Counted from the stretch's first letter, positions 2,671-51,851 are shown. The stretch: DNA of 64,000 bases from Rhodothermales bacterium (GCA_022821845.1 JAJECT010000024.1:2393-66392), one strand, 5' to 3'. A program made the numbers and translations. The notes: generated by a model not told the origin, from the letters alone.

Positions 2671-2728
2671 CTTCGCAACAAGGCGACGGGAACAAGAACT
2701 TTTTCAAAACCTTCCGCTATTCAGGAAC

Positions 2729-9588: not shown

Positions 9589-11253
9589 CTATGGCCGCGC
9601 CGTAACGGTGGCGGTGGCTTCGGGGCTTTCGGCGTATCCGTAGCGAATGGCCTTGGCCCGGATGGTGGCGGTCGTTCCCGGTTCGAGGCGAATCGGACGG
9701 GCATAGAGTTTCCAGTGCGGCTCCTCGCCCTCGTCGGTAGTCCAGGCAATGGAGGCGCCGTCCGTACCAGCCTCCATAATGATCTCGACCGGACCGTCCT
9801 GCTCCGCTTCCAGTTCCCTGTCCGTATCGTTGCGCCTCAGGATGAGCGGCGTGGCCGTAACAGGCTGCTTTTCGCCCATCCACATCTCGCGGACCATCTG
9901 ATCTTCGGACATGTGCCCCTTCTCGTCGATGTCGCGCATCCAGGCGTCCAGTTCGGCGCGCATCCGGCTGAGCGCATCGCCAAACGCGGGATCGTCCGCC
10001 AGATTGCGAACCTCATGCGGATCGGCCTCGACATCGTACAGTTCTTCCGGAGGGCGGCTGTCGCGTAGCCACAATTGCTGGACGTCGTCAAGTTCGCCGT
10101 CGATATGCAGGCGGAATATCTCCTGAATGATGGACGAGCGGTTGCGGTACGGAACGAACTGTACGTACGGCTTTTCCGGGTGAAAATTGCGAATGTACTT
10201 GTACCGTTTGTCGCGGGCGGCGCGGACCATGTCGTACGCCATGTCGATGCGGTCCCGGGCGGCGTAGATATATTCGCGCGGCGGGGCCTCCGCATCTCCG
10301 AGAAAAGCCATGCCGTCCATGTGCGCGGGAACGGGTACGCCGGCAAGGGACAAGACGGTGGGCCCCAGATCGACCAGGCTGACAAGCCGCTCGCTGGCCG
10401 AACCGGCCCCTTGCTGTCCGGGCGTCCGCACGATGAGCGGGACATGGATGCCGGAATCGTAGAGCCAGCGTTTGGCGCGGGGCAAGCCGTCGCCGTGATC
10501 GCCCCAGAAAAAGACGACGGTGTTGTCGGCCAGGCCGTCCTCTTCCAGCTGGCGCAGAATTTCTCCGGCCTGCGCGTCGAGGCGGGCAATGTTGTCGTAG
10601 TGTTTGGCCAGTTGGCGGCGTACGTCCGGCGTATCCGGGTAGTAGGGGGGCAATGCGAGCGTAGCGGGGTCTGTCGTCGTCTCCTCGCCCGGCTCGACCC
10701 AGCTTTGACTCTCATGGGTGACCCCGAAGTTGAATACGGAAAAGAACGGCTGGCCCTCCTTCCGAAGCGGGCTGCGCCAGTGCGCTCCGCGCTTGTGCTC
10801 GTCCCAGATGGTGACGGGGTTGCCGATCTGGTAGTCGGTCTTGACGTCGTTCGTCGCGAAATACCCGGCGGCCCGGAGATATTCCGTGAAGGCCTTTACG
10901 TAGGGAGGCGGCGTGGCATGGTATGGCGTGGGAATGCCGGGCGCATCGTGCGTGGTGCGCATATGATGCCCTCCCCAACCGTTCTGGTGCATGCCTGTGA
11001 TGATGGCCGCCCGGCTCGGCGCGCACACGCCGGCGGTCGTAAACGCTTGCAGGTAGCGGGTCCCCTCGGCGGCGAGGCGGTCCAGGTTCGGCGTGTTCGC
11101 CGCGGCGTCGCCGTAGGCGCCGAACCGCAGGCTGACGTCTTCGGCGGAAATCCAGACGATATTGGGCCGCTCCTGCGCAAGGGCGGGCGCGGCGGCGAAC
11201 GCAACCAGCAAAGACCAGAAGCAAAAGCGCAGGACGGAAAGCGATATTTTCAT
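9589..11253 (-). CDS. sulfatase (formylglycine-dependent arylsulfatase family)
   Basis: Signal peptide. CxPxR motif CAPSRAAIITG with GMHQ downstream. Typical sulfatase N-domain (PNIVWISAED). Confidence 0.9.
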   Translation of the reverse strand: MKISLSVLRFCFWSLLVAFAAAPALAQERPNIVWISAEDVSLRFGAYGDAAANTPNLDRLAAEGTRYLQAFTTAGVCAPSRAAIITGMHQNGWGGHHMRTTHDAPGIPTPYHATPPPYVKAFTEYLRAAGYFATNDVKTDYQIGNPVTIWDEHKRGAHWRSPLRKEGQPFFSVFNFGVTHESQSWVEPGEETTTDPATLALPPYYPDTPDVRRQLAKHYDNIARLDAQAGEILRQLEEDGLADNTVVFFWGDHGDGLPRAKRWLYDSGIHVPLIVRTPGQQGAGSASERLVSLVDLGPTVLSLAGVPVPAHMDGMAFLGDAEAPPREYIYAARDRIDMAYDMVRAARDKRYKYIRNFHPEKPYVQFVPYRNRSSIIQEIFRLHIDGELDDVQQLWLRDSRPPEELYDVEADPHEVRNLADDPAFGDALSRMRAELDAWMRDIDEKGHMSEDQMVREMWMGEKQPVTATPLILRRNDTDRELEAEQDGPVEIIMEAGTDGASIAWTTDEGEEPHWKLYARPIRLEPGTTATIRAKAIRYGYAESPEATATVTARP

Positions 11254-32987: not shown

Positions 32988-34103
32988 TCAGAAGGAGTCA
33001 ACGCCTTCAATGAGATGCAGCAGAGGACGAAACAGGAAAAAACGTTGCCGCCGCCCGCCACCCGCATCAAGCAACTCCAGCACCTCGCCTTCATGCAGTA
33101 CATCCAGAATACGTCTTGCCGTCCGCCCCGGAATCCCGGCGGTTTTGGCGAAACCCGTACTGCCGAAAACGGGCTGCCGGAAAATTGCATCGAGGGCGTG
33201 GGCGACATGAGGGGATCGGGTCATCGCTGCTACCCGACGCTTCATGTCCTCGTAGAGATCAAGCATCTCCCGCACTTTGCGGGCGTTTTCTTCGGCCTGC
33301 GCCTGCACCGCCTCCAGAAAAAACCGACACCAGCCGGTCCAGTCATCGTCGCGGGAAACCGAGAGCAGCCCGGCGAAATAGCATTCCCGTCGCGCCTCCA
33401 GATAAGCGCTGATACAAAACACAGGCTGCCTGATAAAACCGCGTTTCCATAAAAACAGGGGAATCAACATACGCCCTATGCGCCCGTTGCCGTCCAGAAA
33501 GGGGTGCAACGCCTCAAACTCGGCATGGAGAATGGCGAGTTGAACGAGGCGGTCAGGCGCATCTTCGCGCATGTAGCGTTCCCATTTGGACATGCCCCTG
33601 GAGAGTCTGTCGGCGCCAACAGGAACATAGGTGGCATTCTCTATCGTGGACCCGGGCCGACCGATCCAGTTAGGAATGCGCCGCAGTTCGCCGGGCATTT
33701 TGTTGCGACCGCGAACCCCGTCCAGCAACGCCCGATGTGCTTCGAACACAACCCGCATCGAGAGCGGCGCATCCTGCAACAGCGTTACGGCGTCGCGCAT
33801 AGCCATACGACAGTTAAGAATCTCTTCGATGTCGTTGCGGAATTCCGGCGAACCAACCTTCTGCCCCGCCTCGAACCCCAGGATTTCGCCAAGAGTAGCC
33901 CGTATCCCTTCGATTTTCGACGAGAGCACGGCCTCTTGCACGGTCAGCGGCGACAGTAACACATCGGGGTTCGGGATCGCCGCAAGCGTCTCGTCATAGC
34001 GCGCGACGGCAGCGGCAGCCGGCCCAAGCAATGGGATCAGTTGCGACCATTCCAGCCGGTCTTCCGGCGGAAACCGACCTGTACAATAATGCACTGGGGC
34101 CAT
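32988..34103 (-). CDS. Fic family protein (AMPylase-type Fido domain with intramolecular inhibitory helix and C-terminal wHTH)
   Basis: Fic motif HPFLDGNGRIGRML. N-terminal inhibitory motif SSKIEG (S/TxxxEG/N). Start refined to MAPVHYCTGRF at 34103. Confidence 0.9.
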   Translation of the reverse strand: MAPVHYCTGRFPPEDRLEWSQLIPLLGPAAAAVARYDETLAAIPNPDVLLSPLTVQEAVLSSKIEGIRATLGEILGFEAGQKVGSPEFRNDIEEILNCRMAMRDAVTLLQDAPLSMRVVFEAHRALLDGVRGRNKMPGELRRIPNWIGRPGSTIENATYVPVGADRLSRGMSKWERYMREDAPDRLVQLAILHAEFEALHPFLDGNGRIGRMLIPLFLWKRGFIRQPVFCISAYLEARRECYFAGLLSVSRDDDWTGWCRFFLEAVQAQAEENARKVREMLDLYEDMKRRVAAMTRSPHVAHALDAIFRQPVFGSTGFAKTAGIPGRTARRILDVLHEGEVLELLDAGGGRRQRFFLFRPLLHLIEGVDSF

Positions 34104-34200
34104 TGGTCTTTCTCCATGTTGGATAATGCCTGTTCCGTCCCGGTAAACAATGCGACAGAAGGGTTGCGAAACAGATTCGATACTTGACCGCAAACACACT

Positions 34201-34318
34201 TTCCGGCCAAATGTTTCCTAAAGTGGCCAAATAAATCATTTGATGATCATTTGTGGCCATCAAAAGCAGGTTGTCAGTCAAAAACAGGAGAAATCAGCCA
34301 TCTAATGGAGCGTTGGGC
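34201..34318 (+). repeat. phased GGCCA-type motif block R2
   Basis: GGCCA at 34205, 34225 and 34255; AGTCA at 34276; AGCCA at 34296 (spacings 20/30/21/20). Shares AAGTGGCCAAATAAAT and ATGGAGCGTTGGG with R3. Confidence 0.55.
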
Positions 34319-34470
34319 TTACTGTGGCGCACAGAGGCCGCCAGAAACAGAACGACAAAAGCAGGGCCCCGAACGAATCGCAGAAAGATTTTGGGATTGC
34401 ACGGGAACCGGACATCGACCGAAGGCATTCCTCTAACAAGGAAAGCACCAACGAACCCGGGAAAGAAGCC

Positions 34471-34605
34471 ATGTCGAAAAAAATCAATGCAACTGCGAGG
34501 CAGCAGCGTACGCTATCCTACAAAGGTCGAAACGGGCCGCCGCCACGATCCTCTGGGGCTACCAAGCCGCCGCCGCCACCACCGCCGCCGCCAAAAAAGA
34601 AATAA
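34471..34605 (+). CDS. candidate leader mini-ORF with a 9-proline run (MSKKINATARQQRTLSYKGRNGPPPRSSGATKPPPPPPPPPKKK*)
   Basis: ATG at 34471 preceded by GGGAAAGAAG. Ends 33 nt before the ATG of the AT-rich gene. (CCG)3(CCA)2(CCG)3CCA followed by AAAAAGAAATAA. No support beyond ORF and context. Confidence 0.3.
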   Translation: MSKKINATARQQRTLSYKGRNGPPPRSSGATKPPPPPPPPPKKK

Positions 34606-34638
34606 TGTCATTTCACCTTTTAAACCTAATCAAGAAAC

Positions 34639-35259
34639 ATGCCAAACATATCTGTTGAAATAATAGAAGTGCTCAAATTTTTATTACCAGGGTTTATAAC
34701 AACTACCGTTTTTTATTCATTTACTTCATTTCCAAAACCCAACACATTTGAGCAAATTGTATATGCCTTGATTTCGACTACTATCATTCAATCTATTATA
34801 TCATTAATATATTTAATAGAAATTGATCTTTTAAATGACGACAATTTAGAATTATTATTCTCAACCATTATCGCTATTTTATTAGGAATAATATCTTCGT
34901 ATTTGATGAATAATGATATTATACATCAAATTTTTCGTTCATCCAAATTAAAAATCACGAGAGAAAGCTCATATCCATCAGAATGGTATTTCGCTTTTGC
35001 GCGATATTCAAAATGTTATATCGTATTACATATGCATGGAGAAAGACGTCTCTATGGATGGGCTACAGAATGGCCAAGCAGGCCGGATAAAGGACATTTT
35101 CTCATTGAAGAGGGCGAATGGTTATCCTTACCAAAGGAAGCAAACGATAGTGCGAAAAACGATACAATCGAAAAAAATGCTATTCTCGTCCCCGTTGTGG
35201 AGGTCGAAATGGTAGAATTTCTTCCTCAAATTCCAGCAAAAGGTCAGCGGAACGATTGA
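34639..35259 (+). CDS. hypothetical membrane protein (3 N-terminal TM helices + about 100-aa soluble C-domain; DUF6338-like by memory)
   Basis: 206 aa. Very AT-rich coding sequence with AT-biased codons, unlike the host genes. TM segments FLLPGFITTTVFYSF, IVYALISTTIIQSIISLIYLI and LLFSTIIAILLGIISSYL. Confidence 0.65.
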   Translation: MPNISVEIIEVLKFLLPGFITTTVFYSFTSFPKPNTFEQIVYALISTTIIQSIISLIYLIEIDLLNDDNLELLFSTIIAILLGIISSYLMNNDIIHQIFRSSKLKITRESSYPSEWYFAFARYSKCYIVLHMHGERRLYGWATEWPSRPDKGHFLIEEGEWLSLPKEANDSAKNDTIEKNAILVPVVEVEMVEFLPQIPAKGQRND

Positions 35260-35472
35260 AGATGCCCCGTCTGTTATACATAAGGGCAAATACCGGATGG
35301 CGGGCGATATTGGCGATTTGCCCAGCGAGAGGAATTGACCGAATGCGAATCCCAAAAAACTGGAAACAGCCCTTGGCCGAAGGACGCTTGCTGATTTTGT
35401 CCTTTTTCGACGACGGCATCCATCGCCCTGCAGCGGCCATTGCGGCAGAGGGAAAGTAGCCAGAAAACGATC

Positions 35473-35550
35473 TTGGCGGTCACTTGTGGCCAGCAAACAG
35501 GCTTTACGGCCAAAAGCGGATCAAAGTGGCCAATAAATGGAGCGTTGGGG
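35473..35550 (+). repeat. phased GGCCA-type motif block R3
   Basis: GGCCA at 35488, 35508 and 35528, exactly 20 bp apart. The 5' 25 nt nearly match R1 and the 3' part matches R2. Confidence 0.55.
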
Positions 35551-35738
35551 TCACGAGCCATAGCCTTCAGGGCACGGCTTGCCGCCGAATTGACTTTATC
35601 GTCACAAAACCGTAATATTTCCCGTGATTTTCGCCAGAATCTTGCCATACGCATCGACCCGCCTCGCTGAATTAGCGCCAGAATCACGACATACGAATCC
35701 CTGAATCAGGCCCTGTCACCAGCAATTAAGCATAGCCC

Positions 35739-36875
35739 ATGTCCGAAAAACTCGCTTCAACGATCCAAGATATTGCCAAAGGCATCGCCGCCGGAAGATT
35801 CCAAAGCGAGGCGGCAATCAGCCAAGGCGTCGTGACGCGCATTCTGGCTACGCTGGGCTGGGATGTATACGACACGCAGGTCGTTACCCCGCAATTCCCC
35901 ATTCGTAATAGCGCAAGAAAAGTAGACTACGCACTCTGCCACCCACCAAGAGAAGCAGCTATTCTCATAGAAGTCAAGGATATAGGTAAAGCGGATGGGA
36001 AAGGCGAGACACAACTTTTCGAATACTGCTTTCACGAGGGCGTAAACATTGCAATTCTAACCGATGGGCGCCTTTGGAGCTTCTTTTATCCGGCGGGAGG
36101 GGGAAGCAATTACAAAGACAGGCTATTTGCCCAAATCGACCTGCTTATCCACGACCATCGTGCTGTTGCCAATACACTCACCCGATATCTGAATATGGAG
36201 GACATCAGGTCGCGTGCGACATGGGACCGGGCAAGACAGGACCACAAGCAAGCACAACTTGAGAGAAAGGCGGCTTCTCAATTTGTACCCGTTTGGAATA
36301 AACTCCTTTCGGAACCAGCTAAATCATCGCTATTGACCTTATTCCTGAAAGAAGTCGAAAAAGAAGCCCAAGTCAAACCAAATTCGGACCAAGCGGTGGA
36401 ATTTATCCGCAGCCAAGCCAAGGACGAGAGTGCAAGGCCGACAAGGCCACCGGGAAAATCAGGAGAAACCGGAAAACGGCGGCGAACACAACCCGTGACC
36501 CACTATTCGCCGCCGCCAACCGTTAGGAATACCTCAAGACAGGGATCATTCACATTCAGGGGACAGACGCAGGAGTTCCGCTCTGGCAACGAATTACTCG
36601 GCGCGCTATTCACTATGTTTGCCAAAATGGATTCTTATTTCTGTAGAACGTACTCAGAAACATACCTGGGCCGCTCGAAAAAGTACGTGGCCCAAACCCG
36701 GGAAGAGCTTCACCCGACAAATCCAAATCTGAGACAGGCGCTTCCTCTGCCTGGTGGGTGGTGGATATCCACTCATTGCAGCAATGCGCAGAAAATGCAA
36801 CGGATCCGGGAAGCCTGTGTTCTGCTTAACCTGGAATTTGGGCGGGATCTGGTGGTTAACCTTCCGAACGCGTAA
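35739..36875 (+). CDS. HsdR_N-like PD-(D/E)xK nuclease-fold protein with an uncharacterised C-terminal region
   Basis: The N-terminal 130 aa follow the type I restriction R-subunit N-terminal pattern (SEAAISQGVVTRILATLGWDV...RKVDYAL...AILIEVKD...ILTDGRLWSFF). The remaining about 250 aa are not recognised. Confidence 0.7.
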   Translation: MSEKLASTIQDIAKGIAAGRFQSEAAISQGVVTRILATLGWDVYDTQVVTPQFPIRNSARKVDYALCHPPREAAILIEVKDIGKADGKGETQLFEYCFHEGVNIAILTDGRLWSFFYPAGGGSNYKDRLFAQIDLLIHDHRAVANTLTRYLNMEDIRSRATWDRARQDHKQAQLERKAASQFVPVWNKLLSEPAKSSLLTLFLKEVEKEAQVKPNSDQAVEFIRSQAKDESARPTRPPGKSGETGKRRRTQPVTHYSPPPTVRNTSRQGSFTFRGQTQEFRSGNELLGALFTMFAKMDSYFCRTYSETYLGRSKKYVAQTREELHPTNPNLRQALPLPGGWWISTHCSNAQKMQRIREACVLLNLEFGRDLVVNLPNA

Positions 36876-36959
36876 AAGGGAATATAGTCGGAATTGCAGT
36901 AGCCACACCCTCGCGGCCCCCTCCCTTCCCCCAGCAAACCCGCAAGTACCCCTTGCAGG

Positions 36960-37562
36960 TTAATACTCCGCCGCCCCACCCGCCTCCGGGTAACGAAAGA
37001 CAGCATGATTCGCCGACGGTTCCCGACTGGCCCTTTCGCGTTCCGGCTGTCCCAGGTAGCGAGTCCGCAGCATCCGCATATGATGCTGCATGTGGCCGGC
37101 GGTGATCCAGGCCATGCTTCGGACGGTAAACTCGAAGCCGCTGGCGCGACCGCGGCGATTCCAGGCGGCGTCCGGCAAGCCCTTGAATAACAACAGCGTG
37201 GCATAGCGCGCCGCGTCCCACTCTTCGACCAGCGCGGCAAGGGTTCTGTCGTCCGCCCCCGACGCAGCAACATACTCGTTCTCGTCGAATCCCGGGTAAT
37301 GGGCGCGGTCGCCGCGGGCAAAAGCCATTGCCCGCATCGCAAACATCCGCTCGCTGTCCGTCAGGTGCCCGACGAGTTCGCGCACGGACCACTTGCCCGG
37401 CGCGTACCGATACTGCTCCATATCGGCGGGGACATCCGCCGCCAGACGGAGAAAATCATACCGCTGCTCCCGGAGCGTATCCAGTATGGAGCCATCCGGG
37501 GCGGCGGCTACGTACGGCCGATAGAATTCGCCGTATTCGTTGGGTTCAGGTCTGCGTTCCAT
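36960..37562 (-). CDS. DinB family protein (DinB_2-type four-helix bundle)
   Basis: Start refined to MERRPEPNEY. Metal-ligand His pattern: ELVGHLTDSERMF early and TAGHMQHHMRML late. Host-like GC. Starts 26 nt after the stop of the Toprim-like gene. Confidence 0.85.
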   Translation of the reverse strand: MERRPEPNEYGEFYRPYVAAAPDGSILDTLREQRYDFLRLAADVPADMEQYRYAPGKWSVRELVGHLTDSERMFAMRAMAFARGDRAHYPGFDENEYVAASGADDRTLAALVEEWDAARYATLLLFKGLPDAAWNRRGRASGFEFTVRSMAWITAGHMQHHMRMLRTRYLGQPERERASREPSANHAVFRYPEAGGAAEY

Positions 37563-37588
37563 GGGACTGGCTGATGTTGAACAAGGAA

Positions 37589-38206
37589 TTACGCCGCGCA
37601 AAGGGCCTGCAGGAAATCCCGGATCGGGCGAAAGGCCTCGTGATCCAGATTCCAATACTTTTTCTTTGCTGCGACACCAACGGAAACATGGGGTTCCGGC
37701 ATCGTCGCAAGATACGCATGGGCGCGCGCCTTCTCTGGATGACGAGTCTCAACGCCAACCTCGGATTTGACGCACCGGAAAAATTCGTCGATGCACGAAT
37801 CGACGGGCGTACCCGCAAAAGATTGCGACAACACGGTTTCCAGCATACCGGGACCGTCCTGGGGCAATATCAATACGCCCGTTTGGGGATTTCCTTCCGT
37901 AAAAAGACTGCTTTTCGACGGCGCCGGAAGATGGGCTTTACGCAATGCGGACTGGACGCTTTGGAATGCGCTGTCGGCAGATTTTTCGGCGTCCCGGACA
38001 ATTCCGATACGTCGAACCTGGCTAAAATTGGATGTCCCCGGAAAACCACGCAGGAATTTCGGCAAATCATGGACGCCTTCGTAGTTATGAATCTGCACCC
38101 CCGAAAGATCAAGGTGCTTCCGGAATGCTTCAAAAAAATTTCGCCCATCGTTGCCTTCGACAAGAAGCTGGATGGGATCGCGTATTTTTACAGACTTCCC
38201 CTCCAC
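37589..38206 (-). CDS. Toprim-like small protein (DUF3226/DUF4276/DUF4435-type), partner of the upstream ATPase
   Basis: 205 aa. GTG start 3 nt after the ATPase stop (TGAGCCGTG). Acidic motifs LLVEGNDGRNFF and IGIVRDAEKS match the Toprim E...DxD/E layout. Family assignment is by pattern memory only. Confidence 0.7.
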   Translation of the reverse strand: MEGKSVKIRDPIQLLVEGNDGRNFFEAFRKHLDLSGVQIHNYEGVHDLPKFLRGFPGTSNFSQVRRIGIVRDAEKSADSAFQSVQSALRKAHLPAPSKSSLFTEGNPQTGVLILPQDGPGMLETVLSQSFAGTPVDSCIDEFFRCVKSEVGVETRHPEKARAHAYLATMPEPHVSVGVAAKKKYWNLDHEAFRPIRDFLQALCAA

Positions 38207-38209
38207 GGC

Positions 38210-39256
38210 TCAGCGCACCTCCATACGATATTCTACGACACTGTCGATTTGGGAGCGGTCAAGGGTCACGCATCGGCTCGCGTCCTCGTCTATCTCCAGC
38301 CGATGGATTGAAAGATCGTCTCCTTCAATAGCGGAAGCCGCCGCTTGCAGGCATTCGTAGCTATGCGTGGTGGCGAACACCTGCGTACCCAGTTTTCTGG
38401 AGGTATCGTCAATCACGCGCCAAACATCCGCGAGCGCGGAATGGTGTATGCCGTTTTCGATTTCATCCACAAGCAAGACGCCGCCTTCGACCGCAGCCAT
38501 AGCCAACGCAAGCCTTACTATGCGCACCATGCCCCCTCCCATAACCGACAAAGGCACAAGTTCAGGAAGGCCAAGGTCTCCCCATATCATCGGGGAACCA
38601 CTTGACGAATTCTCTTCGATACTCTGGAGTCGGGGCTCGATCGCTTGCAATGCCCCGAGCACCAGATCGCCTTGCTTGCGTTGTCGCAAAACACCGAGGA
38701 GTCTGGCTGGTTCGCTGCTGGTGGTATCCATATCCAGATAGGGCGGCAGAATCTTCGCGCTGAACGGAATTTCTGTGTCCCTTGCCATACTTCCCGGTGT
38801 AAACCGGACATCCGTACCGTCTGGGAGGTGGAAACTCTTTCCAACTTCCTCGTTACCTCGCCAAAAAGTGCAGACCAGACACTGTTTTCCAGGAGTGCCT
38901 TCCTTGCGCTGTCCCTCGTCAGGATCCCCAAAATATATCTTCACCGATATCGCGCCAATTGCGGCATGATCGGCGGCGATTTCAATGGAAGCGCCGGTAT
39001 CCAATGCCGAAAACATCGGCTTCCACAGAATTCTCTGAACCGCTGCGGGCGACCGTGTATCTTCAGTAAGCCCCTGTAAATACCGCCCTATATTCACACC
39101 CGATAGATTCCCCCCGCTGGACAAGAGAAAAATGGCTTCCAGCAAACTGGTTTTGCCCGCATTGTTGCTGCCCGTAATCACATTGATACGGGTCGCAGGC
39201 GAGACTTCCAGTTCGCGAAACCGGCGGAAATTTGTGATTTTAACCCATTCCAGCAT
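38210..39256 (-). CDS. ABC-type AAA ATPase (AAA_15/AAA_21-like)
   Basis: Walker A ITGSNNAGKTSLLEAI, signature-like MGGGMVRIVRLALAMA, Walker B GVLLVDEIENGIHHSAL, H-loop VFATTHS. GC is lower than the flanks. Confidence 0.85.
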   Translation of the reverse strand: MLEWVKITNFRRFRELEVSPATRINVITGSNNAGKTSLLEAIFLLSSGGNLSGVNIGRYLQGLTEDTRSPAAVQRILWKPMFSALDTGASIEIAADHAAIGAISVKIYFGDPDEGQRKEGTPGKQCLVCTFWRGNEEVGKSFHLPDGTDVRFTPGSMARDTEIPFSAKILPPYLDMDTTSSEPARLLGVLRQRKQGDLVLGALQAIEPRLQSIEENSSSGSPMIWGDLGLPELVPLSVMGGGMVRIVRLALAMAAVEGGVLLVDEIENGIHHSALADVWRVIDDTSRKLGTQVFATTHSYECLQAAASAIEGDDLSIHRLEIDEDASRCVTLDRSQIDSVVEYRMEVR

Positions 39257-44269: not shown

Positions 44270-46330
44270 ATGAAAAGCCGCCGCGAACGCACACACATCC
44301 AACTGAACCTCCTCCGAATTGCAGGCGCCTTGGCGGCGCTCCTCCTGATCCTTCCGGCGCAGGCGCAAACGCAAGGTTTCTTCCGGGCCGAAGGCACGCA
44401 GATCCTCAACAGGGAGGGCGATCCGGTGGTCATACGCGGCCTCGGACTGGGCGGCTGGCTCGTGCCGGAGGGCTACATGGTGCATATGACCGCCATCGAC
44501 GGCGGCTCTCCCCGTACCATCCGGGCGCAAATCGAAGACCTGATCGGAAAGGCGGGTGCAGACCGTTTCTTCGAGCTATACCGGGCCAACTACGTCGACG
44601 AAAAGGATATTGCGGCCATCGCCGACTGGGGATTCGACCATCTCCGCCTCCCCATGCATTACAATCTGCTCTTCGACCCCGATACGGAAGCGTTCGTCGA
44701 AAGCGGGTTCGAACTCATCGACACGTTCATCGAGTGGTGCCGAAAATACGAAATCGACGTCATTCTGGACATGCACGCCGCGCCTGGCGGACAGAACGAC
44801 GGCCCCATCAGCGACAGCGACGGCACGGCCCGCCTGTGGACGGAACCCGACCCCTACCAGGACCAGCTGGTTACTATATGGACCGAAATCGCCCGGCGCT
44901 ACGCAGACGAGCCGCTCATCATCGGGTACGACCTGATCAACGAACCCGTAACGCCCGACGCCATCGGCGACGGCGTGGCGCAATCGGAAGCCCTGCGCGC
45001 CTTGTACGTGCGCCTCATCGAAGCCATCCGCCAGATCGACAAGAACCATATCCTCTTCATAGAAGGGAATTACTACGCCACCACGTTCCCCCCGCAACTG
45101 GAAAATTTCGCGGACGACAATATCGTCTACGCCTTCCACAAGTACTGGAACGCGACGGACGTGGGCACCATCAACTATCTTCTGGATTTTAGCAAAAAAA
45201 CCGATGTGCCGCTGTGGCTGGGCGAGTCGGGGGAGAACTCCAATCCGTGGTTCTTCGAAGTGACCCGGCTTGCGGAAACGCACGGCATCGGGTGGAACTG
45301 GTGGACGCACAAGAAAATAGCCACGATCACGAGTCCGCTTTCCGCGCCGTTTACGCCGGGATACGTAAACGTGATCAATTACCTGAACAATCCCGAGAAC
45401 AACCCCCGACCGAACAGTCGGGCGGCTGCCGAGGGACTCTTTTCCATGGCCATGGGGCTGGACCTTGATTCCTGCGACGTGCGGCCGGGCGTTCTGGCGT
45501 CGCTGCTGGACCCGAATTACGCCAGGCTCCGCAAACCCTTCAAGGAACATCGCATTCCGGGCGTTATCAATGCCGCGGATTACGACGTCGGACATGCGGG
45601 GACCACCTACCAGGACCGCGATCTCATGCGCGTGGACGGACGAGACGGCGTTGGCAATCAGGGGTACGAATACCGCAACGACGGCGTAGACATCCAGAAA
45701 TCGGAGGACCCGGAAGGATTCGAATATAACGTGGGGTGGATCGAAACGGCCGAATGGCTAACCTGGACGGTGCACGTCGATACGGAAGGAATCTATGACG
45801 TGGAGATTCGCGTGGCTTCGGGAGGCAGCGGCGGCCTTCTGAGCCTGGCGATGGACGGCGAGCGCATCGGCCCGTTTGTCCGGGCGCCCGGCACCGGCGG
45901 ATGGCAAAAATGGACCTCGATATGGCTGCGCGACGTGACGCTGACCGCCGGGGAGCATATCCTGAGGATGAATGTGCGCACCGGGGGCTTCAACGTAAAC
46001 CGGATGCGCTTTACGCTCAAGCAGGCCACTTCCGCCGAGCAAGCCGAGGAAATACCGGAGGGGATGCATCTGGAAGGCGCCTGGCCCAATCCGTTTTCCG
46101 GAGAAGTCCAGCTGGCGTTCCAAACCGACCGGCCCGTACGCGCCCGCCTCGAAATCGTGGACGTACTGGGCCGCACCGTATATGCCCGGGCCCCGGAAGC
46201 GTTCGCAACGGGAACGCACGCCATGGCCCTACGCCCGACGCTGCCCCCCGGCATGTATTTCTCGCGCCTCTTCCTCGATGACGGCAAGCGAACCCACCTC
46301 CTGACGACGCCCCTGACAGCGATTCGGTAA
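44270..46330 (+). CDS. glycoside hydrolase family 5 enzyme with CBM6-like module and T9SS C-terminal sorting domain
   Basis: Signal peptide. GH5 motifs IIGYDLINEP (acid/base) and WLGESGEN (nucleophile). CBM-like segment INAADYDVGHAGTTYQD. CTD WPNPFSGEVQLAF...GMYFSRL. Confidence 0.85.
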   Translation: MKSRRERTHIQLNLLRIAGALAALLLILPAQAQTQGFFRAEGTQILNREGDPVVIRGLGLGGWLVPEGYMVHMTAIDGGSPRTIRAQIEDLIGKAGADRFFELYRANYVDEKDIAAIADWGFDHLRLPMHYNLLFDPDTEAFVESGFELIDTFIEWCRKYEIDVILDMHAAPGGQNDGPISDSDGTARLWTEPDPYQDQLVTIWTEIARRYADEPLIIGYDLINEPVTPDAIGDGVAQSEALRALYVRLIEAIRQIDKNHILFIEGNYYATTFPPQLENFADDNIVYAFHKYWNATDVGTINYLLDFSKKTDVPLWLGESGENSNPWFFEVTRLAETHGIGWNWWTHKKIATITSPLSAPFTPGYVNVINYLNNPENNPRPNSRAAAEGLFSMAMGLDLDSCDVRPGVLASLLDPNYARLRKPFKEHRIPGVINAADYDVGHAGTTYQDRDLMRVDGRDGVGNQGYEYRNDGVDIQKSEDPEGFEYNVGWIETAEWLTWTVHVDTEGIYDVEIRVASGGSGGLLSLAMDGERIGPFVRAPGTGGWQKWTSIWLRDVTLTAGEHILRMNVRTGGFNVNRMRFTLKQATSAEQAEEIPEGMHLEGAWPNPFSGEVQLAFQTDRPVRARLEIVDVLGRTVYARAPEAFATGTHAMALRPTLPPGMYFSRLFLDDGKRTHLLTTPLTAIR

Positions 46331-46374
46331 AGTCTGAGCCGGATCCAATTTGTGACCGCGAATGGTCCAATGGG

Positions 46375-46403
46375 CTTGACAATGTTCGGGAGCAGGTTTA
46401 TAT
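46375..46403 (+). promoter_or_regulatory. sigma70-like promoter candidate for the low-GC two-gene insert
   Basis: TTGACA (46375-46380), a 17-nt spacer, then TATATT (46398-46403), about 50 nt upstream of the ATG at 46452. Confidence 0.35.
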
Positions 46404-46451
46404 TATAAACTCGTTTGAAGGATTTGGGCGGCTTTTCGGATCGTATCTGCT

Positions 46452-48152
46452 ATGAAAAATCTGTTTTTCTTGCTGTCTTCGCTGTTTCTTGTGCTATCCG
46501 TTTCGGACGCCGAAGCTCTGGCCCAAGGCGACGTTACGTTCAAAGGCTCTTTTAATGGCGGTTATTTTCTCCTTGAAATAGCGGGGGGCAAAGCAAAGAT
46601 TAGCAAGTATCCAGGCGTTTATCATAATAATTGCGAAATATGCAATCCCAATGTGTATCCGTGTTCGACTGGCTACGATGGAAAGCGTCGATTAGGCATC
46701 GCAGGCAGCCAATGCAGCCCCTTAACACGCCCTGCATTGTCTGCCGTACAGAAATATTGCACCCAATCCTGCTCTGTTAATTTGGGCGATCCTGCGCCGC
46801 CACTCCCTCCGCCTCCTGCGCCACCCGCTCCACCTGCTCCACCCGCGCCCACTTCTACGCCTAAGCCTACTCCCAAAACGCCCTCCAATGCTTATGTCAC
46901 CTTCTCAGGTTCTTTCGGCGGCGGTTACATTAAAATAAAAATAGCCGCCGGAAAGGCTAATGTCGTTATGTATCCCGGTCGTACGTACACCGATTGCAAA
47001 ATCTGCGAACCGAGCATCTGGGGCTGTTCGGCTGGCACAGACGGCAAGAAAAGATTGGGCACCGGAGGAAGCAAGTGCACCAGTGTCCCGTCTTCCGCAA
47101 TGAATTCTATACGAGCCTACTGCGCTCAATCCTGTTCCATTAGTTCGCAACCACCTATGCCTCCGGAAGAAGTAGTAATTGTTAATAACAATCCTGAAAA
47201 CACATGTGGGGCAACACAAATACCAAATGATTCTGCATCTTCGGGAACAGATTCTGCATCTTCAGGAACGTGTTCTTTTTGTCACGAATGTAGTAAATTT
47301 CGTCAATGCCGAAGGAGAGGCGACGGACCGTTTTACGGCTGTACACATATTGATGCAGCTAAATTGAGAGCTTTAGGCTATGTTTGTTCGGATTTCTGTC
47401 CTTCCGATGATTCTGGCGGAAGTAAACCTGTAGGACATCCCGGAACTGACCCTCTGCCTACCAATCCTCCTTCCCCGCCTGATTCTATTCCTAATTCTGG
47501 TGGTTCCGGTACTCCTTCGGATAGTACTGGCACAGATACTTCAGAAAATAAACCTTGCATGTGCAATGGCCAGGAAGTTGATGAGGCTATTTGCGATCTT
47601 GTCGATGAGCATAAGGAACATACATTTCCTTTCAAGTGCGATCAATTCAGAAATGATCATGGGATGTTCGTACCAAGTGGACCAAAGATTAAAGGTACTG
47701 AGAAAGGAAAACATAAAGGATATGGGCATATTAATTCATCTCTTAAAGTATTATTTGCTAATGTTCAGAATTATTTGGTTAAAAATCATGGTAACATTCC
47801 GCTCAGGGTAACCTCTGGATATCGATGCCCTAAAGGTAATCATGACGTGTACATTAGTCTTAATAATGGTAAAGGAACTGATAAGTATCCTGCCGATACT
47901 CCGTATGATGTCAAGAACCAAGTAAGCCGTCATGTTATTGGTAAGGCTGCAGATATTAGTTCTGCCACTGTCAACGATTCCCGTTGGACTTCCGAAGTAA
48001 AAAATGATATTGTAAAGTATAATCTTCAATTATTTCTTGATCCCAATGATTCTACGGGACAACGAAGCCTTTCTCAATCTCAAATATATTCTAGTACCTC
48101 GCACGTGCATATTGACCTTCCTCGCGGTTCGTACGACCGCACCGCTCGTTAA
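46452..48152 (+). CDS. secreted multidomain protein: two Cys-rich 82-aa repeats + Pro-rich linkers + Cys-rich middle + C-terminal Peptidase_M15A-like (LAS-fold) domain
   Basis: Signal peptide MKNLFFLLSSLFLVLSVSDAEALAQ. C-terminal motifs LRVTSGYRCPKGNHDV, SRHVIGKAADIS and SHVHIDL (H-x6-D ... H-x-H zinc ligands of M15A/VanY-like peptidases). Low-GC codon usage. Confidence 0.8.
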   Translation: MKNLFFLLSSLFLVLSVSDAEALAQGDVTFKGSFNGGYFLLEIAGGKAKISKYPGVYHNNCEICNPNVYPCSTGYDGKRRLGIAGSQCSPLTRPALSAVQKYCTQSCSVNLGDPAPPLPPPPAPPAPPAPPAPTSTPKPTPKTPSNAYVTFSGSFGGGYIKIKIAAGKANVVMYPGRTYTDCKICEPSIWGCSAGTDGKKRLGTGGSKCTSVPSSAMNSIRAYCAQSCSISSQPPMPPEEVVIVNNNPENTCGATQIPNDSASSGTDSASSGTCSFCHECSKFRQCRRRGDGPFYGCTHIDAAKLRALGYVCSDFCPSDDSGGSKPVGHPGTDPLPTNPPSPPDSIPNSGGSGTPSDSTGTDTSENKPCMCNGQEVDEAICDLVDEHKEHTFPFKCDQFRNDHGMFVPSGPKIKGTEKGKHKGYGHINSSLKVLFANVQNYLVKNHGNIPLRVTSGYRCPKGNHDVYISLNNGKGTDKYPADTPYDVKNQVSRHVIGKAADISSATVNDSRWTSEVKNDIVKYNLQLFLDPNDSTGQRSLSQSQIYSSTSHVHIDLPRGSYDRTAR

Positions 48153-48173
48153 CCTCTAACCTTGCTTTGCGCT

Positions 48174-48995
48174 ATGACGACTTTCCTTCGCCTTTTTCGC
48201 TCAGTGATTTTACTGGCTCCGTTACTTCTTTTTGCATCTTCTGCCTTGGCCCAAGAATACAAAATCGGCTCTCCCGACGCTGAAGCGCTCGCGGCAGAAC
48301 TTCATAGCGGCGATACGTATCGTATCGGACAAGCGCTTGATCGTTTTCCGTATTATGAGGATGTTTATGAGAACAATTCAGTGCTTGTCGACATACATCC
48401 TTCCGTTGCAAAAGGTCTTATTTCCGCACTTGATACGCAATTGGATTATCTTTTTTCCGAAGACATAGGCGAAGGAGGTGAAGTTCTCTTTGAATACGTA
48501 ATTACGCCTCTTACTGTGTTTCTTACGCGAGTAGACGACCACGAGGCCATGCCCGTGCTTCTTCGCGCTTCGCAATTTGGCGGCGCCGCTCCACTTGCCC
48601 TTGCAGAATTTGGACCTGATATTGTGCCTATCGTTATTGATTATATCAATTCTCCTGAACGTAATATACCGGAAATTGGAGGTGGTTTTCTTGTTTGCGT
48701 GTCTATTGTTCGTTTCTGGCGCCCTCTGGACGTCAGGACGCACGATACGCTTAAGCAACTTGCGATTAATTATATGCAAGGATACGTTCCAGAACATCTT
48801 GTCGATGATCCTCTGTATTCTTCATTGAAAAGGGACGGCGCTTATCTTGCTTCGGCCCTTGGAGACGCTGATCTTAAAGAGATGGTTATCGGCATGATGG
48901 ACGATCTTAAGGGGTTTGGCGAACTTTATCTCGAACAATGGTACGAAGAGGAAATCGATGCGATCGACAGCGATCGTCTGGAGCAAAACGACTGA
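48174..48995 (+). CDS. secreted helical-repeat (HEAT/ARM-like) protein, candidate cognate partner of the M15A protein
   Basis: ATG at 48174 gives MTTFLRLFRSVILLAPLLLFASSALAQ (signal peptide); the track starts at the TTG at 48162. Alpha-helical repeat-like composition. Same low GC. Starts 22 nt after the upstream stop. Confidence 0.65.
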   Translation: MTTFLRLFRSVILLAPLLLFASSALAQEYKIGSPDAEALAAELHSGDTYRIGQALDRFPYYEDVYENNSVLVDIHPSVAKGLISALDTQLDYLFSEDIGEGGEVLFEYVITPLTVFLTRVDDHEAMPVLLRASQFGGAAPLALAEFGPDIVPIVIDYINSPERNIPEIGGGFLVCVSIVRFWRPLDVRTHDTLKQLAINYMQGYVPEHLVDDPLYSSLKRDGAYLASALGDADLKEMVIGMMDDLKGFGELYLEQWYEEEIDAIDSDRLEQND

Positions 48996-49145
48996 TTTGC
49001 GCCCCCCGGCGTAACCATCTCCCTTTTCTTGCGTATCGCGCAAGAAGGGTCGTGGGCCGGATGGGCTTGCCGTCGAGGAGGCGGCGCCCGTCTCGCCCTT
49101 TTTGGCCCTTCCCAAGGCTTCGAGTAACCCATCTGAACCCCCTTC

Positions 49146-51851
49146 ATGCTTGCGACCGCGCGTATTCTGCTTTTTTCCATACTGATCTTTTCGGCTCCCG
49201 CAAGCCGGGGTCAGACATACGCCCAGCCAGATCGTTCAGAGGACGCCTCCTCGGAAGATGCGGAGGCCCCGCGCAACCTTCTGCAAACCGTCACCGCCTC
49301 GGCGGCGACGGAGACCATACGGATCGACGGGCGGCTGGACGAGCCTGCATGGGAACGGGGCGCGCCCGCCGACCGGTTTTTCCAATCGGACCCCGACGAG
49401 GGAGCGCCCGCGACCGAACGCACCGAAGCCATCGTCCTGTACGATAGCGAAGCAATCTATGTCGGGGCCCGCCTCTTCGATAGCGCGCCGGACTCCATCG
49501 TCGCCCGCCTGGGCCGCCGCGACGCGGACCTGGAATCCGACTTTTTCGCGGTCGCCCTGGACCCGTACCGGGACCGCCGAAGCGGGTACTACTTTGGCCT
49601 GAACGCCGCCGGTACGCTGCACGACGGCGTATTCATGAACGACAACCACGACGATTCCGACTGGGATGGCGTATGGCAGGGGCGCGTACAGCGCACGTCG
49701 TACGGATGGACGGCCGAAATGCGCATCCCGTATTCGCAGCTGCGGTTCTACCAGCAGGACCAGTATGTATGGGGGATCAACTTCATGCGCGGCATTTCCC
49801 GTAAACAGGAACGCGCCTACCTCGCGTACACCCCCAGCGACGAAAGCGGGTTCGTAAGCCGGTTCCCGGAACTGGAAGGCATTCGGGATATTCGCCCGCG
49901 CCGCCAGTTGGAACTGATCCCGTACGTTACGTCCCGAGGCGACTACGATCAGGCGGTCGGCGAGGACGACCCGTTCAACGACGGCTCCGCGTACGCTCTG
50001 GACGGAGGCCTGGACATACGATACGCCCTGAACTCCAACCTGACGATGAACGCCACGGTAAATCCTGATTTCGGGCAGGTGGAAGTAGACCCCGCCGTTG
50101 TCAACCTGGGGGATTACGAAACGTACTTCTCGGAAAAACGTCCGTTCTTCGTGGAAGGCGCGTCCGTATTCGGCGATTTCGGACGGGGCGGCCCCAGTTT
50201 CAATGTGAATTTCCACAACGGCCCCTCCTTTTTCTACAGCCGCCGCATCGGGCGAGCGCCCACAGGCAGTTTGCCCGGCCATGCGTTTGCAGACGTCCCG
50301 GACGGTACGCGCATACTTGGCGCCGCCAAAATCGTGGGCAAACTGGCGGGCGACTGGAACGTAGGCGCCATGCAAGCGCTGACGGCTCGGGAACATGCCC
50401 GACTGCAAAGCGAATCCGGCGCGCAATCCGAAGCAGAAATAGAGCCGACCGCCTGGTACGGCGCATACCGCGCCCAGAAAGAATTCGCGGAGGGGCGCCA
50501 TGGCCTGGGCTTTTTGTCCACCGTCAACCAGCGGTTCTTTTCGGACGAGCGCCTCATGGACCAGATGAACAAACAGTCGCTGGTCTTCGGCATGGACGGG
50601 TGGACCTTCCTCGACGAGGAAAAAACCTGGGTGCTGAACGGTTCTGCGGGATGGTCCCGCGTGACAGGAACCGAAGCGCGGCTCCTGGACATTCAGCGAA
50701 GTTCGGTGCATTACTTCCAGCGCCCGGACAGAAAACATGTCCGCATCGACAGCGCGGCCACCTCCCTGAGCGGATGGACCGGGCGCATGGGCCTGACCAG
50801 GGAGCGCGGACGGTTGAGCGTCAATACGGCGGTCGAAGCCGTATCCCCTTCCTTTGACGTAAACGACGCGGGGTTCCAGTACAGTTCGGGGAACGTGAAT
50901 GGGCATGTCGCTACGGGATACAGCTGGAACGATCCCACCCGATTTACGCGAGACGCCTTTGTAATGGCTGCCCTCTTTCGCGGCGTCGACTACGACGGCA
51001 ACGTGTTCTCGTCGGGCGCGTTCTTTTTCGGCCGCGCGCTGTTTCCGAATTACTATTCGATGTTCGGACGCTTCTTCGCAAACCCGGAAACCGTAAATAC
51101 GCGGCGGACGCGGGGCGGCCCGCTGACGCTGCAACCAGGGGGATGGGGCATGGGCCTGAACGCGTACTCCGACCGGCGCAAGGCGTTCGTGTTCGGGCTT
51201 GAGGCAGACCTGGAGCGCAGGGGGTCCGGAAAGGAAACGGAACTGGGCGTAGACATCGAGTGGCAAGCCGCCTCGAACGTGGCCCTGTCCCTGAACCCGT
51301 CCGTCGAATGGACAACCAGCAAATCCCAATGGGTCGACGCGTTCGACGATCCGCTGGCCGACCGAACCTTCGGAAAACGCTACGTATTCGCCAATCTCGA
51401 CCAGATCACGCTGTCGTCCGCCGTACGGCTCAACTGGACATTCACCCCGGAACTGAGTTTCCAGCTGTACGCGCAGCCGCTCGTTTCCGTGGGCGACTAT
51501 TCAGAATACAAGGAACTGGCGCGCGCCCGGTCCTACGATTTCATACGCTACGGCGAAGAAGGCTCGACGTTCGACGAGGAAACGCGAACGGCAGACCCGG
51601 ACGGGCCCGGCGGACCCGCCCAAGCGTTCGAACTCCCCAATCGGGATTTCAACTTCGCCTCGCTCCGGGGAACGGCGGTGGCGCGCTGGGAATACCGGCC
51701 CGGCTCCACGCTGTATCTGGTCTGGACGCAGCAACGGTCCGACGCTACGGACGACCCGTACTTCGCATTCGGCTCGTCCTTCGACCAGTTGGCCGACGCG
51801 CCCACGAGAAACGTATTCGTGCTGAAAATGAACTGGTGGTTCAGTTCGTAA
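49146..51851 (+). CDS. CBM9-like/DUF5916-type outer-membrane protein
   Basis: Signal peptide. N-terminal IRIDGRLDEPAWERGAPADRFFQSDPDEGAPATERTEAIVLYDSEAIYVGARL is the pattern of the CBM9/DOMON-like domain fused to a large beta-barrel region (DUF5916 by memory). Confidence 0.8.
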   Translation: MLATARILLFSILIFSAPASRGQTYAQPDRSEDASSEDAEAPRNLLQTVTASAATETIRIDGRLDEPAWERGAPADRFFQSDPDEGAPATERTEAIVLYDSEAIYVGARLFDSAPDSIVARLGRRDADLESDFFAVALDPYRDRRSGYYFGLNAAGTLHDGVFMNDNHDDSDWDGVWQGRVQRTSYGWTAEMRIPYSQLRFYQQDQYVWGINFMRGISRKQERAYLAYTPSDESGFVSRFPELEGIRDIRPRRQLELIPYVTSRGDYDQAVGEDDPFNDGSAYALDGGLDIRYALNSNLTMNATVNPDFGQVEVDPAVVNLGDYETYFSEKRPFFVEGASVFGDFGRGGPSFNVNFHNGPSFFYSRRIGRAPTGSLPGHAFADVPDGTRILGAAKIVGKLAGDWNVGAMQALTAREHARLQSESGAQSEAEIEPTAWYGAYRAQKEFAEGRHGLGFLSTVNQRFFSDERLMDQMNKQSLVFGMDGWTFLDEEKTWVLNGSAGWSRVTGTEARLLDIQRSSVHYFQRPDRKHVRIDSAATSLSGWTGRMGLTRERGRLSVNTAVEAVSPSFDVNDAGFQYSSGNVNGHVATGYSWNDPTRFTRDAFVMAALFRGVDYDGNVFSSGAFFFGRALFPNYYSMFGRFFANPETVNTRRTRGGPLTLQPGGWGMGLNAYSDRRKAFVFGLEADLERRGSGKETELGVDIEWQAASNVALSLNPSVEWTTSKSQWVDAFDDPLADRTFGKRYVFANLDQITLSSAVRLNWTFTPELSFQLYAQPLVSVGDYSEYKELARARSYDFIRYGEEGSTFDEETRTADPDGPGGPAQAFELPNRDFNFASLRGTAVARWEYRPGSTLYLVWTQQRSDATDDPYFAFGSSFDQLADAPTRNVFVLKMNWWFSS

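Follow-up and report, generated by a model that had tools for sequence, protein, structure and literature searches.

A low-GC gene pair circulating among Rhodothermales is probably a bacteriocin-like toxin-immunity cassette

Colicins and pesticin, which are not known to carry a Sec signal peptide and leave the producing cell by means of lysis proteins, are among the described systems closest to the locus studied here. Zoocin A/Zif and lysostaphin/Lif resemble it in another way: a Sec-secreted LAS zinc metallopeptidase acts on peptidoglycan peptides, a distinct domain does the targeting, and an immunity gene lies alongside. Ross et al. in 2019 reportedly described acquired interbacterial defence arrays in Bacteroidales, in which immunity genes without their toxin, tandem duplicates among them, lie on mobile DNA. 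Here we report on a low-GC segment of 2.7 kb in a stretch of 64,000 nucleotides (64 kb) from a Rhodothermales bacterium (GCA_022821845.1, JAJECT010000024.1:2393-66392), referred to below as the window. The segment carries two genes: gene 1, for a secreted modular protein ending in an M15A-like peptidase domain, and gene 2, for a smaller exported protein predicted to be all-helical. A previous reading made from the sequence alone (hereafter the sequence-only reading) had proposed that they form a horizontally acquired antibacterial effector-immunity pair. The effector-immunity part of that proposal, which remains a hypothesis, was strengthened by orphan gene-2 copies, by module shuffling and by the finding that the peptidase domain varies together with gene 2. 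From these sequence comparisons, we consider that the segment is most likely a recombinase-less cassette encoding a bacteriocin-like polymorphic toxin-immunity module.

The likeness to pesticin/Pim and colicin M/Cmi lies in the overall plan, namely one or more N-terminal modules followed by a C-terminal killing domain for peptidoglycan or its precursors, an immunity gene immediately downstream with a periplasmic product, the existence of orphan immunity genes and the exchange of modules by recombination. However, the catalytic folds of pesticin and colicin M are those of a muramidase and a phosphatase, whereas gene 1 is predicted to have one of the M15 type, and the cassette is chromosomal rather than plasmid-borne, belongs to the phylum Rhodothermota, and has Cys-rich repeats and an ARM/HEAT-like gene 2 without detectable relatives. 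In pairs belonging to type VI secretion systems (T6SS), such as Tae/Tai and Tse1/Tsi1, a peptidoglycan peptidase toxin is likewise encoded beside a signal-peptide immunity gene, and orphan immunity genes are frequent. T6SS effectors differ in lacking a Sec signal and in having PAAR, VgrG, MIX or WHIX features, none of which was found in gene 1 or around its copies. Zoocin A and lysostaphin are instead M23 enzymes in which the catalytic domain precedes the targeting domain; immunity to them depends on a cytoplasmic FemABX-type enzyme that alters the cross-bridge and not on a periplasmic binding protein, and their targets require no crossing of an outer membrane. With members of the M15 family (1LBU, MepK-type enzymes, 8Q2G and ChiX 5OPZ), gene 1 shares the SGYRxxxxN, SxHxxGxAxD and HxH motifs as well as profile matches, but its domain is very divergent, bears a four-Cys cap and comes after a novel secreted region of 370 aa. 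Compared with the Bacteroidales orphan immunity arrays, those of Rhodothermales are tiny (1-2 genes), lack a recombinase and hold a single immunity family. PMC5358913 describes a modular plan for bacteriocins that includes a linked immunity gene, and M15-like domains have been listed among predicted T6SS peptidoglycan effectors of the WHIX type (PMC12135965). Judged by sequence, the pair fits none of these bacteriocin, T6SS or bacteriolysin families, and only its catalytic domain is classifiable, as a divergent M15/PF08291 domain.

Pairing of gene 1 and gene 2 across Rhodothermales

Among 5.8 billion proteins, we found six homologues of gene 1, for which the 8,000 candidates sharing most words were scored, and eight homologues of gene 2. 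The census of gene-1 relatives may be incomplete, as Pro-rich linkers may have dominated the list of 8,000 candidates. One of the gene-1 homologues (P0001) was 96% identical to the window protein, and all copies that could be located came from metagenome-assembled genomes of Rhodothermales. Co-occurrence of the two genes in other genomes, which the sequence-only reading had suggested looking for, was found at several loci of this order, and the pair or its remnants occupy at least six unrelated loci, all in Rhodothermales. One of them adjoins IS3 fragments and a type I restriction-modification system (L003), another adjoins a phage-type integrase (L004), and a third lies between dTDP-sugar genes and gltX (L006). 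The genes were nowhere found at host-like GC, an observation that would have spoken for native genes of the conserved glycan cluster; at sites unrelated to one another, every copy stands out with sharp borders as a low-GC islet, at 0.41-0.52 against 0.58-0.62 in the DNA around it. This distribution is best explained by a cassette that has no recombinase of its own and belongs to a pool of low-GC accessory genes circulating in the Rhodothermales.

Every complete locus has gene 1 followed by gene 2 or one of its subtypes, at a distance of 0-50 nt in the window and in L001, L002, L013, L003, L004, L005, L006, L010 and L012. Gene 2 occurs as subtype A (273 aa), subtype B (L004, L012) and subtype C (L003, L005), and these three subtypes pair with three subtypes of the peptidase domain. 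Over seven cognate pairs, the identity of the peptidase domain closely followed that of gene 2 (Spearman 0.93; Mantel r 0.96, p 6e-4), whereas the identity of the N-terminal part of gene 1 did not (r -0.06 against gene 2), and the N-terminus was also uncorrelated with its own C-terminus. Co-variation of the C-terminal domain with the immunity gene, independent of the N-terminus, is the pattern of polymorphic toxins.

Comparison of individual loci showed how these modules have been exchanged. Between L003 and the window, the N-terminal repeats are 69-84% identical, against 27-30% for gene 2 and 32% for the full-length peptidase domain (42% in the best local segment). Nucleotide identity between L003 and L006, at 82%, is confined to the promoter and the first (5') half of gene 1, with a recombination breakpoint inside the gene. 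A variant of 466 aa in L010 (8552-9952) has a lipoprotein-type signal (…LPGCDSG) and an unrelated N-terminus, joined to the same four-Cys cap and M15 module, and it too is followed by a gene-2 homologue. On the 3.6-kb contig L012, gene 1, gene 2 and a chimeric open reading frame (ORF; 2417-3520) form a tandem array, the chimera consisting of about 100 aa of gene-2 type, signal peptide included, fused to a C-terminal half of gene-1 type.

Gene 2 was also found without a complete gene 1. In L007, which is the L006 locus in a strain 98% identical, gene 1 has been lost except for its last 31 nt and gene 2 is intact. L008 combines a gene-1 remnant (aa 493-566) with an intact gene 2, in L009 two tandem gene-2 copies come immediately after the cassette promoter, and L011 holds a gene-2 fragment. 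In genome OZ220686.1, the sites L007 and L009 together contain three gene-2 copies, and a gene-1 homologue was not detected there. As in orphan immunity genes, the orphan gene-2 ORFs are intact and evolve under purifying selection (dN/dS 0.25-0.41). Since gene 2 is retained and duplicated after the loss of gene 1, it behaves in an immunity-like manner, unlike a dedicated chaperone or regulator.

Both genes are also constrained where they occur together. Between the window and L001, dN/dS was 0.18 for gene 1, which argues that this gene is functional, 0.17 for gene 2 and 0.05-0.13 for the flanking genes. The highest dN/dS in this comparison was that of the peptidase domain (0.36) and the highest dN that of gene 2 (0.035), both from small counts; the replacements in the peptidase domain cluster at aa 503-514 and 544-548.

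Several cassettes contain in addition a third small gene of about 115 aa, convergent to gene 2, with a lipobox (LTGC) and no Pfam match. It lies just past a conserved terminator hairpin (CCCCGCG-N15-CGCGGGG) and was located in L008 (10948-11301, minus strand), L004 (about 6258-6569), L006 (about 12133-12378) and L012 (about 1981-2300); it is absent from the window and from L007.

Sequence features of the two proteins

The features of the cassette and of the DNA around it are listed in Table 1. The ORF, the motifs and the profile searches agree with the description of gene 1 in the sequence-only reading, as a 566-aa protein with a Sec signal and a C-terminal M15A/LAS-type domain. Its signal peptide was read from the sequence and is conserved in the homologues. 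The Cys-rich repeats comprise 85 aa each and align with six invariant Cys (alignment A4). The middle region is a mosaic, with 67% identity to L005 and 25-34% to L003 and L006, and the C-terminal module opens with a conserved four-Cys cap (CMCNG...CDL...KCDQF).

Table 1. Position of the features of the inserted cassette, of its flanks and of a second low-GC patch in the window
Feature	Position	Strand	Basis or remark
Inserted low-GC cassette (promoter, gene 1, gene 2)	46331-49012	+	GC, empty sites, flank alignment
Cassette-borne promoter region	46342-46404	+	Upstream block GGATCCAATTTG...ATGGGC, then TTGACA (46376)-N17-TATATT (46404)
Gene 1, 566-aa secreted modular protein, candidate toxin, 25 Cys, 54 Pro	46452-48152	+	ORF
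Gene 1, Sec-type signal peptide MKNLFFLLSSLFLVLSVSDAEALA/QG	46452-46526	+	Basic n-region, hydrophobic core, A-L-A cleavage motif
Gene 1, Cys-rich repeat 1, aa 26-110, 6 Cys	46527-46781	+	48% identical to repeat 2
Gene 1, Pro-rich linker, 18 Pro in aa 111-146	46782-46886	+	9-nt tandem repeats
Gene 1, Cys-rich repeat 2, aa 146-232, 6 Cys	46887-47147	+	Alignment with repeat 1
Gene 1, middle region: third Cys-rich block (aa 252-316), then Pro/Ser/Gly linker	47157-47555	+	
Gene 1, candidate C-terminal toxin module: CxC...C...C cap (aa 369-396) and M15/LAS zinc-peptidase domain	47556-48149	+	
Gene 2, 273-aa predicted periplasmic all-alpha ARM/HEAT-like solenoid, candidate immunity protein	48174-48995	+	
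Native upstream region of the DUF5916 gene, outside the insertion	49013-49145	+	Aligns to L014/L015 empty-site DNA
GH5+CBM6 gene with tail for the type IX secretion system (T9SS)	44270-46330		Left neighbour of the insert
DUF5916/CBM9 gene	49146-51851		Right neighbour of the insert (Pfam)
Fic/Fic_N gene	32988-34199	-	
DUF6338 membrane protein	34639-35259	+	
HSDR_N-like protein	35739-36875	+	
DUF3226 gene	37589-38206	-	Adjoins the AAA_15/AAA_21 ATPase gene
AAA_15/AAA_21 ATPase gene	38210-39256	-	

Against 1.84 billion representative proteins, the profile of the Cys-rich repeat retrieved only the gene-1 family and four long repetitive proteins (P0015-P0018), whose marginal matches cover short stretches and were treated as spurious. 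The repeat has no relative in Pfam, and a profile search found none in the PDB. By these comparisons the N-terminal Cys-rich repeat domain is new, as had been proposed for this region of the protein. Direct sequence searches with gene 1 and with gene 2 against the PDB returned only low-complexity or chance matches, and gene 1 has no match in NCBIfam or PADLOC.

At the C-terminus of gene 1, we identified the motifs SGYRCPKGN (aa 455-463; 47814-47840), SRHVIGKAAD (aa 492-501; 47925-47954) and SHVHID (aa 550-555; 48099-48116), which contain the H-x(3-6)-D and H-x-H patterns of M15 enzymes and the SGYRxxxxN pattern of the M15A type. They are conserved in the family as SGYRCPxGN, SxHxxGxAxD and HxH, with S, G, Y, R, C, P, G, N, S, H, G, A and D invariant across eight sequences; HxH occurs in all complete members except the two L012 copies, which have YVH instead. 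PF08291 (Peptidase_M15_3) matches all eight family members (best E 1.2e-7; 29.9 bits for L010) and PF05951 seven of the eight. The window C-terminal domain on its own scores 23.4 bits against PF08291, just above the curated cut-off of 23.2 (E 6.7e-5), and membership of the family as a whole is clear. In the PDB, the domain profile matched 8q2g (a phage L-Ala-D-Glu endopeptidase), 1lbu (the Streptomyces albus G zinc DD-carboxypeptidase), 23ri (an M15C domain) and, more weakly, ChiX (5opz), and the alignments with 1lbu and 8q2g pass through the catalytic motifs. The PHROG endolysin family phrog_894 also matches aa 443-560 (E 3e-6). The subtype present in the window has an insertion of 20-30 aa between the first two catalytic motifs. 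The order of secondary-structure elements in aa 429-555 of the AlphaFold2 (AF2) model, which is poor (predicted local distance difference test score, pLDDT, 43), is compatible with a Hedgehog/DD-peptidase fold. On the strength of the PF08291, PDB and PHROG matches, the C-terminus of gene 1 is accepted as a divergent M15A-like peptidase domain, as first suggested from its motifs.

Gene 2 begins in the same direction after a gap of 21 nt, and its start codon is backed by an invariant M1 in the alignment of homologues (A2). The signal peptide, MTTFLRLFRSVILLAPLLLFASSALA/QE (…SSALA/QE), is conserved in all homologues. With conserved signal peptides on both proteins, gene 2 would be located where peptidoglycan is. 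The AF2 model (pLDDT 82; predicted template modelling score, pTM, 0.78) is an all-helical solenoid of 14 helices, for which Foldseek returned only generic armadillo/HEAT-type matches (E about 0.04-0.2, TM 0.3-0.4). Gene 2 is thus predicted to be an ARM/HEAT-like helical solenoid, and both the model and the conserved signal peptide are in keeping with the helical-repeat protein of 273 aa that the sequence-only reading had placed shortly after gene 1. Neither sequence nor profile searches gave a family match for gene 2 in Pfam, NCBIfam, PADLOC, PHROG or the PDB.

Proposed function and alternatives

As a toxin, gene 1 would be exported by Sec and kept inactive in the periplasm of the producer by gene 2. 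Vesicles, leakage or lysis are candidate routes for its release, and the lipoprotein variant of L010 gives a hint that the protein may sit at the outer membrane or in vesicles. The disulfide-rich repeats and linkers might serve release from the producer, binding to and entry into related target cells, or both, and the M15/LAS zinc peptidase would then cut the peptide stems or cross-links of peptidoglycan in the target periplasm. Gene 2, itself exported to the periplasm by Sec, would bind and block the cognate peptidase domain and thereby protect the producer; in cells that have only gene 2, it may protect against the toxin of neighbours.

A number of points weigh against this interpretation. 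Only about a dozen loci are available, every one of them from a metagenome assembly, which makes for a small sample; among the gene-1 copies, some (L006, P0002, P0004) have frameshifts or truncations that may be due to decay or to assembly error. The full-length window protein reaches only 19.4 bits against the PF08291 cut-off of 23.2, so that its membership is borderline, and support for the M15 fold comes from sequence profiles, since full-length gene 1 gave an AF2 model too poor for use. Gene 2 matches no known immunity family, and linkage of adjacent DNA can explain part of the co-variation without co-evolution. As to delivery, Pfam finds only the M15 domain in gene 1 and the Sec signal peptides are the only export determinants; gene 1 has no T9SS C-terminal domain and no feature of T6SS, PAAR, Rhs or contact-dependent inhibition (CDI) systems, and neither a lysis gene nor genes for T5, T6 or T7 markers or Rhs flank any copy. 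A Sec-exported protein in a diderm could just stay in the periplasm.

The last point would suit a different role, in which gene 1 is a cell-wall remodelling enzyme of the host (an LD- or DD-carboxypeptidase or endopeptidase of the MepK or Streptomyces DD-carboxypeptidase type) and gene 2 its periplasmic regulator, scaffold or chaperone. PF08291 and PF05951 do include autolytic and remodelling enzymes, both proteins are Sec-exported with no visible route past the periplasm, and both genes are under purifying selection and vertically inherited in the lineage. We nevertheless consider this role improbable, given that the family is very rare and patchy, absent from sister lineages at the same site and always found in low-GC islets at differing loci, that N-terminal and C-terminal modules are shuffled, and that gene 2 has outlived the deletion of gene 1 as an intact, duplicated gene still subject to purifying selection. 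Slightly less credible again is a variant of the toxin-immunity reading in which the benefit is food and not kin competition: gene 1 would be a lytic enzyme, extracellular or carried by vesicles, with which the cell preys on other bacteria or scavenges nutrients from them, with gene 2 as the inhibitor that provides self-protection. The insert does lie in a polysaccharide-degradation neighbourhood of secreted enzymes (GH5, GH10, T9SS-tail proteins) and the lipoprotein-anchored variant of L010 would suit outer-membrane vesicles, but the neighbourhood is coincidental, because other copies are found in unrelated contexts, and the diversification into cognate subtypes, together with the orphan copies of gene 2 that related Rhodothermales carry, speaks for a conflict inside the clade and not for broad predation.

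An origin from a prophage or phage, with gene 1 as a secreted endolysin-like lysin and gene 2 as an unrelated phage accessory gene, is the most remote of the three alternatives. It draws on the phrog_894 match, on the PDB matches to phage L-Ala-D-Glu endopeptidases and on the phage-type integrase beside L004. Yet only the catalytic domain resembles PHROG endolysins: a signal-peptide-bearing Cys-rich extension of 370 aa before the catalytic domain is not endolysin architecture, no phage structural, holin or replication genes were found in the insert or beside other copies, gene 2 has no relative among 2.9 million viral contigs and no match in PHROG, and the cassette has its own sigma-70-like promoter. 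A role in anti-phage defence or as a toxin-antitoxin system was rejected, as both products carry signal peptides and neither matches PADLOC.

Returning to the toxin-immunity module, a more ambitious version of it can be formulated. The pair would then found a Sec-dependent class of Rhodothermota bacteriocins that operates without T6SS or T9SS, with a new disulfide-rich tandem domain for release and outer-membrane crossing, a new ARM/HEAT-like family of subtype-specific immunity proteins, and a recombinase-less promoter-toxin-immunity cassette that has repeatedly entered the same hotspot (the GH5 3' end, in two lineages and in opposite orientations). We put this forward tentatively, as a possibility that stands clearly behind the toxin-immunity assignment as such. 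Interbacterial weapons of Rhodothermota are almost unstudied, and a full-text search of the literature returned no paper joining Rhodothermales with an immunity protein. If the assignment is true, it would reveal a family of peptidoglycan-targeting toxins delivered without the usual machines, a new family of immunity proteins with a solenoid fold, and a new Cys-rich extracellular domain without relatives among the 1.84 billion representative proteins. The advance would be incremental rather than conceptual, because the functional class is well known. With three co-varying subtypes, chimeras, immunity genes that occur as orphans, and matched strains of which some have the toxin and others lack it, the pair forms a compact natural system suited to studying how toxin-immunity specificity diversifies, and the M15 domain could be mined as a lytic enzyme.

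The insertion site and other features of the window

In windows of 400 nt along the 64 kb, GC falls to 0.38-0.53 across 46.2-49.0 kb, compared with about 0.60-0.65 on either side. The insert is the lowest-GC 2.5-kb stretch of the entire window (0.458; window mean 0.598, sd 0.040), with a GC of 0.46 against 0.60-0.64 in the flanks and 0.60-0.62 in its neighbours. At third codon positions (GC3), the values were 0.36 for gene 1 and 0.40 for gene 2, compared with 0.73-0.78 for four neighbouring genes. Both measures confirm the drop in composition that had been noticed between the end of the GH5 gene (46330) and the start of the DUF5916 gene (49146).

When metagenomes were scanned with the GH5 protein, two relatives emerged (L014 and L015), in which GH5 is 77-78% and DUF5916 74-78% identical to the window. 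The gene order in both is T9SS-tail protein, GH5, DUF5916 and TPR, with GH5 and DUF5916 separated by about 210 nt (L014) or 380 nt (L015) and without any trace of gene 1 or gene 2. The comparison with relatives that the sequence-only reading had called for thus yielded an empty site in both, with GH5 directly beside DUF5916, in agreement with its view that the segment splits a glycan-utilisation cluster. Together with the low-GC islet around every homologue, the empty sites in sister lineages also uphold the proposed horizontal acquisition. Positions 49013-49140 of the window align to the intergenic DNA of L014 and L015 with a score reached by 0 of 200 shuffles, whereas positions 46331-46451 gave no alignment to that DNA. 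On the basis of these alignments, the segment from 46331 to about 49012 is an insertion that replaced the native GH5-DUF5916 intergenic DNA upstream of 49013, and its right boundary lies at most some 17 nt past the stop codon of gene 2.

The arrangement of the window was found again in L001, in L002 and in L013, a contig that encodes the identical GH5 protein and is 100% identical. Nucleotide identity between the window and L001/L002 is 95-96.6% in the flanks, 95.8% in gene 1 and 93.2% in gene 2. As the insert has diverged in step with its flanks in strains that are about 95-96% identical, it appears to have been inherited vertically in this lineage for some time, and the insertion is less recent than its composition suggests. 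A divergent pair occupies the same site downstream of GH5 in L005 (1-2446) in inverted orientation; its GH5 is 77% identical to that of the window, its gene 1 about 40% and its gene 2, of a different subtype, about 27%. This inverted divergent pair and the empty sites of L014 and L015 suggest that the site downstream of GH5 is an insertion hotspot that received independent insertions.

The empty site of L015 (10050-10230) contains some 170 nt of additional DNA, richer in AT, which L014 lacks and which may be the scar of another insertion at the same spot.

The TTGACA-N17-TATATT element reported by the sequence-only reading is present and has 11 of the 12 positions of the sigma-70 consensus. 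At the unrelated sites L003, L004 and L006, gene 1 is likewise preceded by the -35 block and the block upstream of it, with the conserved pattern GGxxCCGATTTG ... AAGGGCTTGACA. A GC-rich leader of about 90 nt (…GTGTCGCGCTCGGCTCCGGCCGGGGCGGCG…) is conserved between the promoter and the gene-1 start in L003 (about 9900-10000), L004 (about 3575-3664) and L006 (about 9270-9357) and is missing in the window and in L001. This leader could be a regulatory 5' untranslated region; neither the insert nor the conserved L006 leader has a match in Rfam.

An att-like duplication had been suspected at the edges of the segment (46335-46377 and 49056-49069), and this, alone among the descriptive statements of the sequence-only reading, did not hold. 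The match between the two sides is a single 9-mer, reached by 13 of 200 shuffles and therefore at chance level. As follows from the alignment of 49013-49140 to the empty sites, the right copy is part of the native DNA and begins about 45-55 nt beyond where the insertion ends; L014 has GGTTCAGATGGGGCGG and L015 has GGTTCAAATGGTCCTG at the corresponding place. The other half, on the left (GGATCC...AAGGGCTTGACA), belongs to the cassette promoter that is conserved upstream of gene 1 in L003, L004 and L006. A target-site duplication was rejected on the same three grounds. No direct or inverted repeats flanking the insertion were found at its boundaries, and no integrase or recombinase occurs among the ORFs of the inserted segment. 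A tRNA-linked island was also rejected, since the sole tRNA gene of the window is at position 1016 and none lies within 45 kb of the insert. The insert thus has neither the junction repeats nor the integrase or tRNA target of a site-specific integrative element. A 17-nt imperfect inverted repeat, 82% complementary, links the 3' coding region of GH5 (46273-46289) to the DNA upstream of DUF5916 (49065-49081); it is probably due to chance, because both arms are in native DNA.

Elsewhere in the window, a second low-GC patch (GC 0.43-0.54) extends over positions 32988-39256 and contains the last five genes of Table 1. This patch looks like a variable or defence island.

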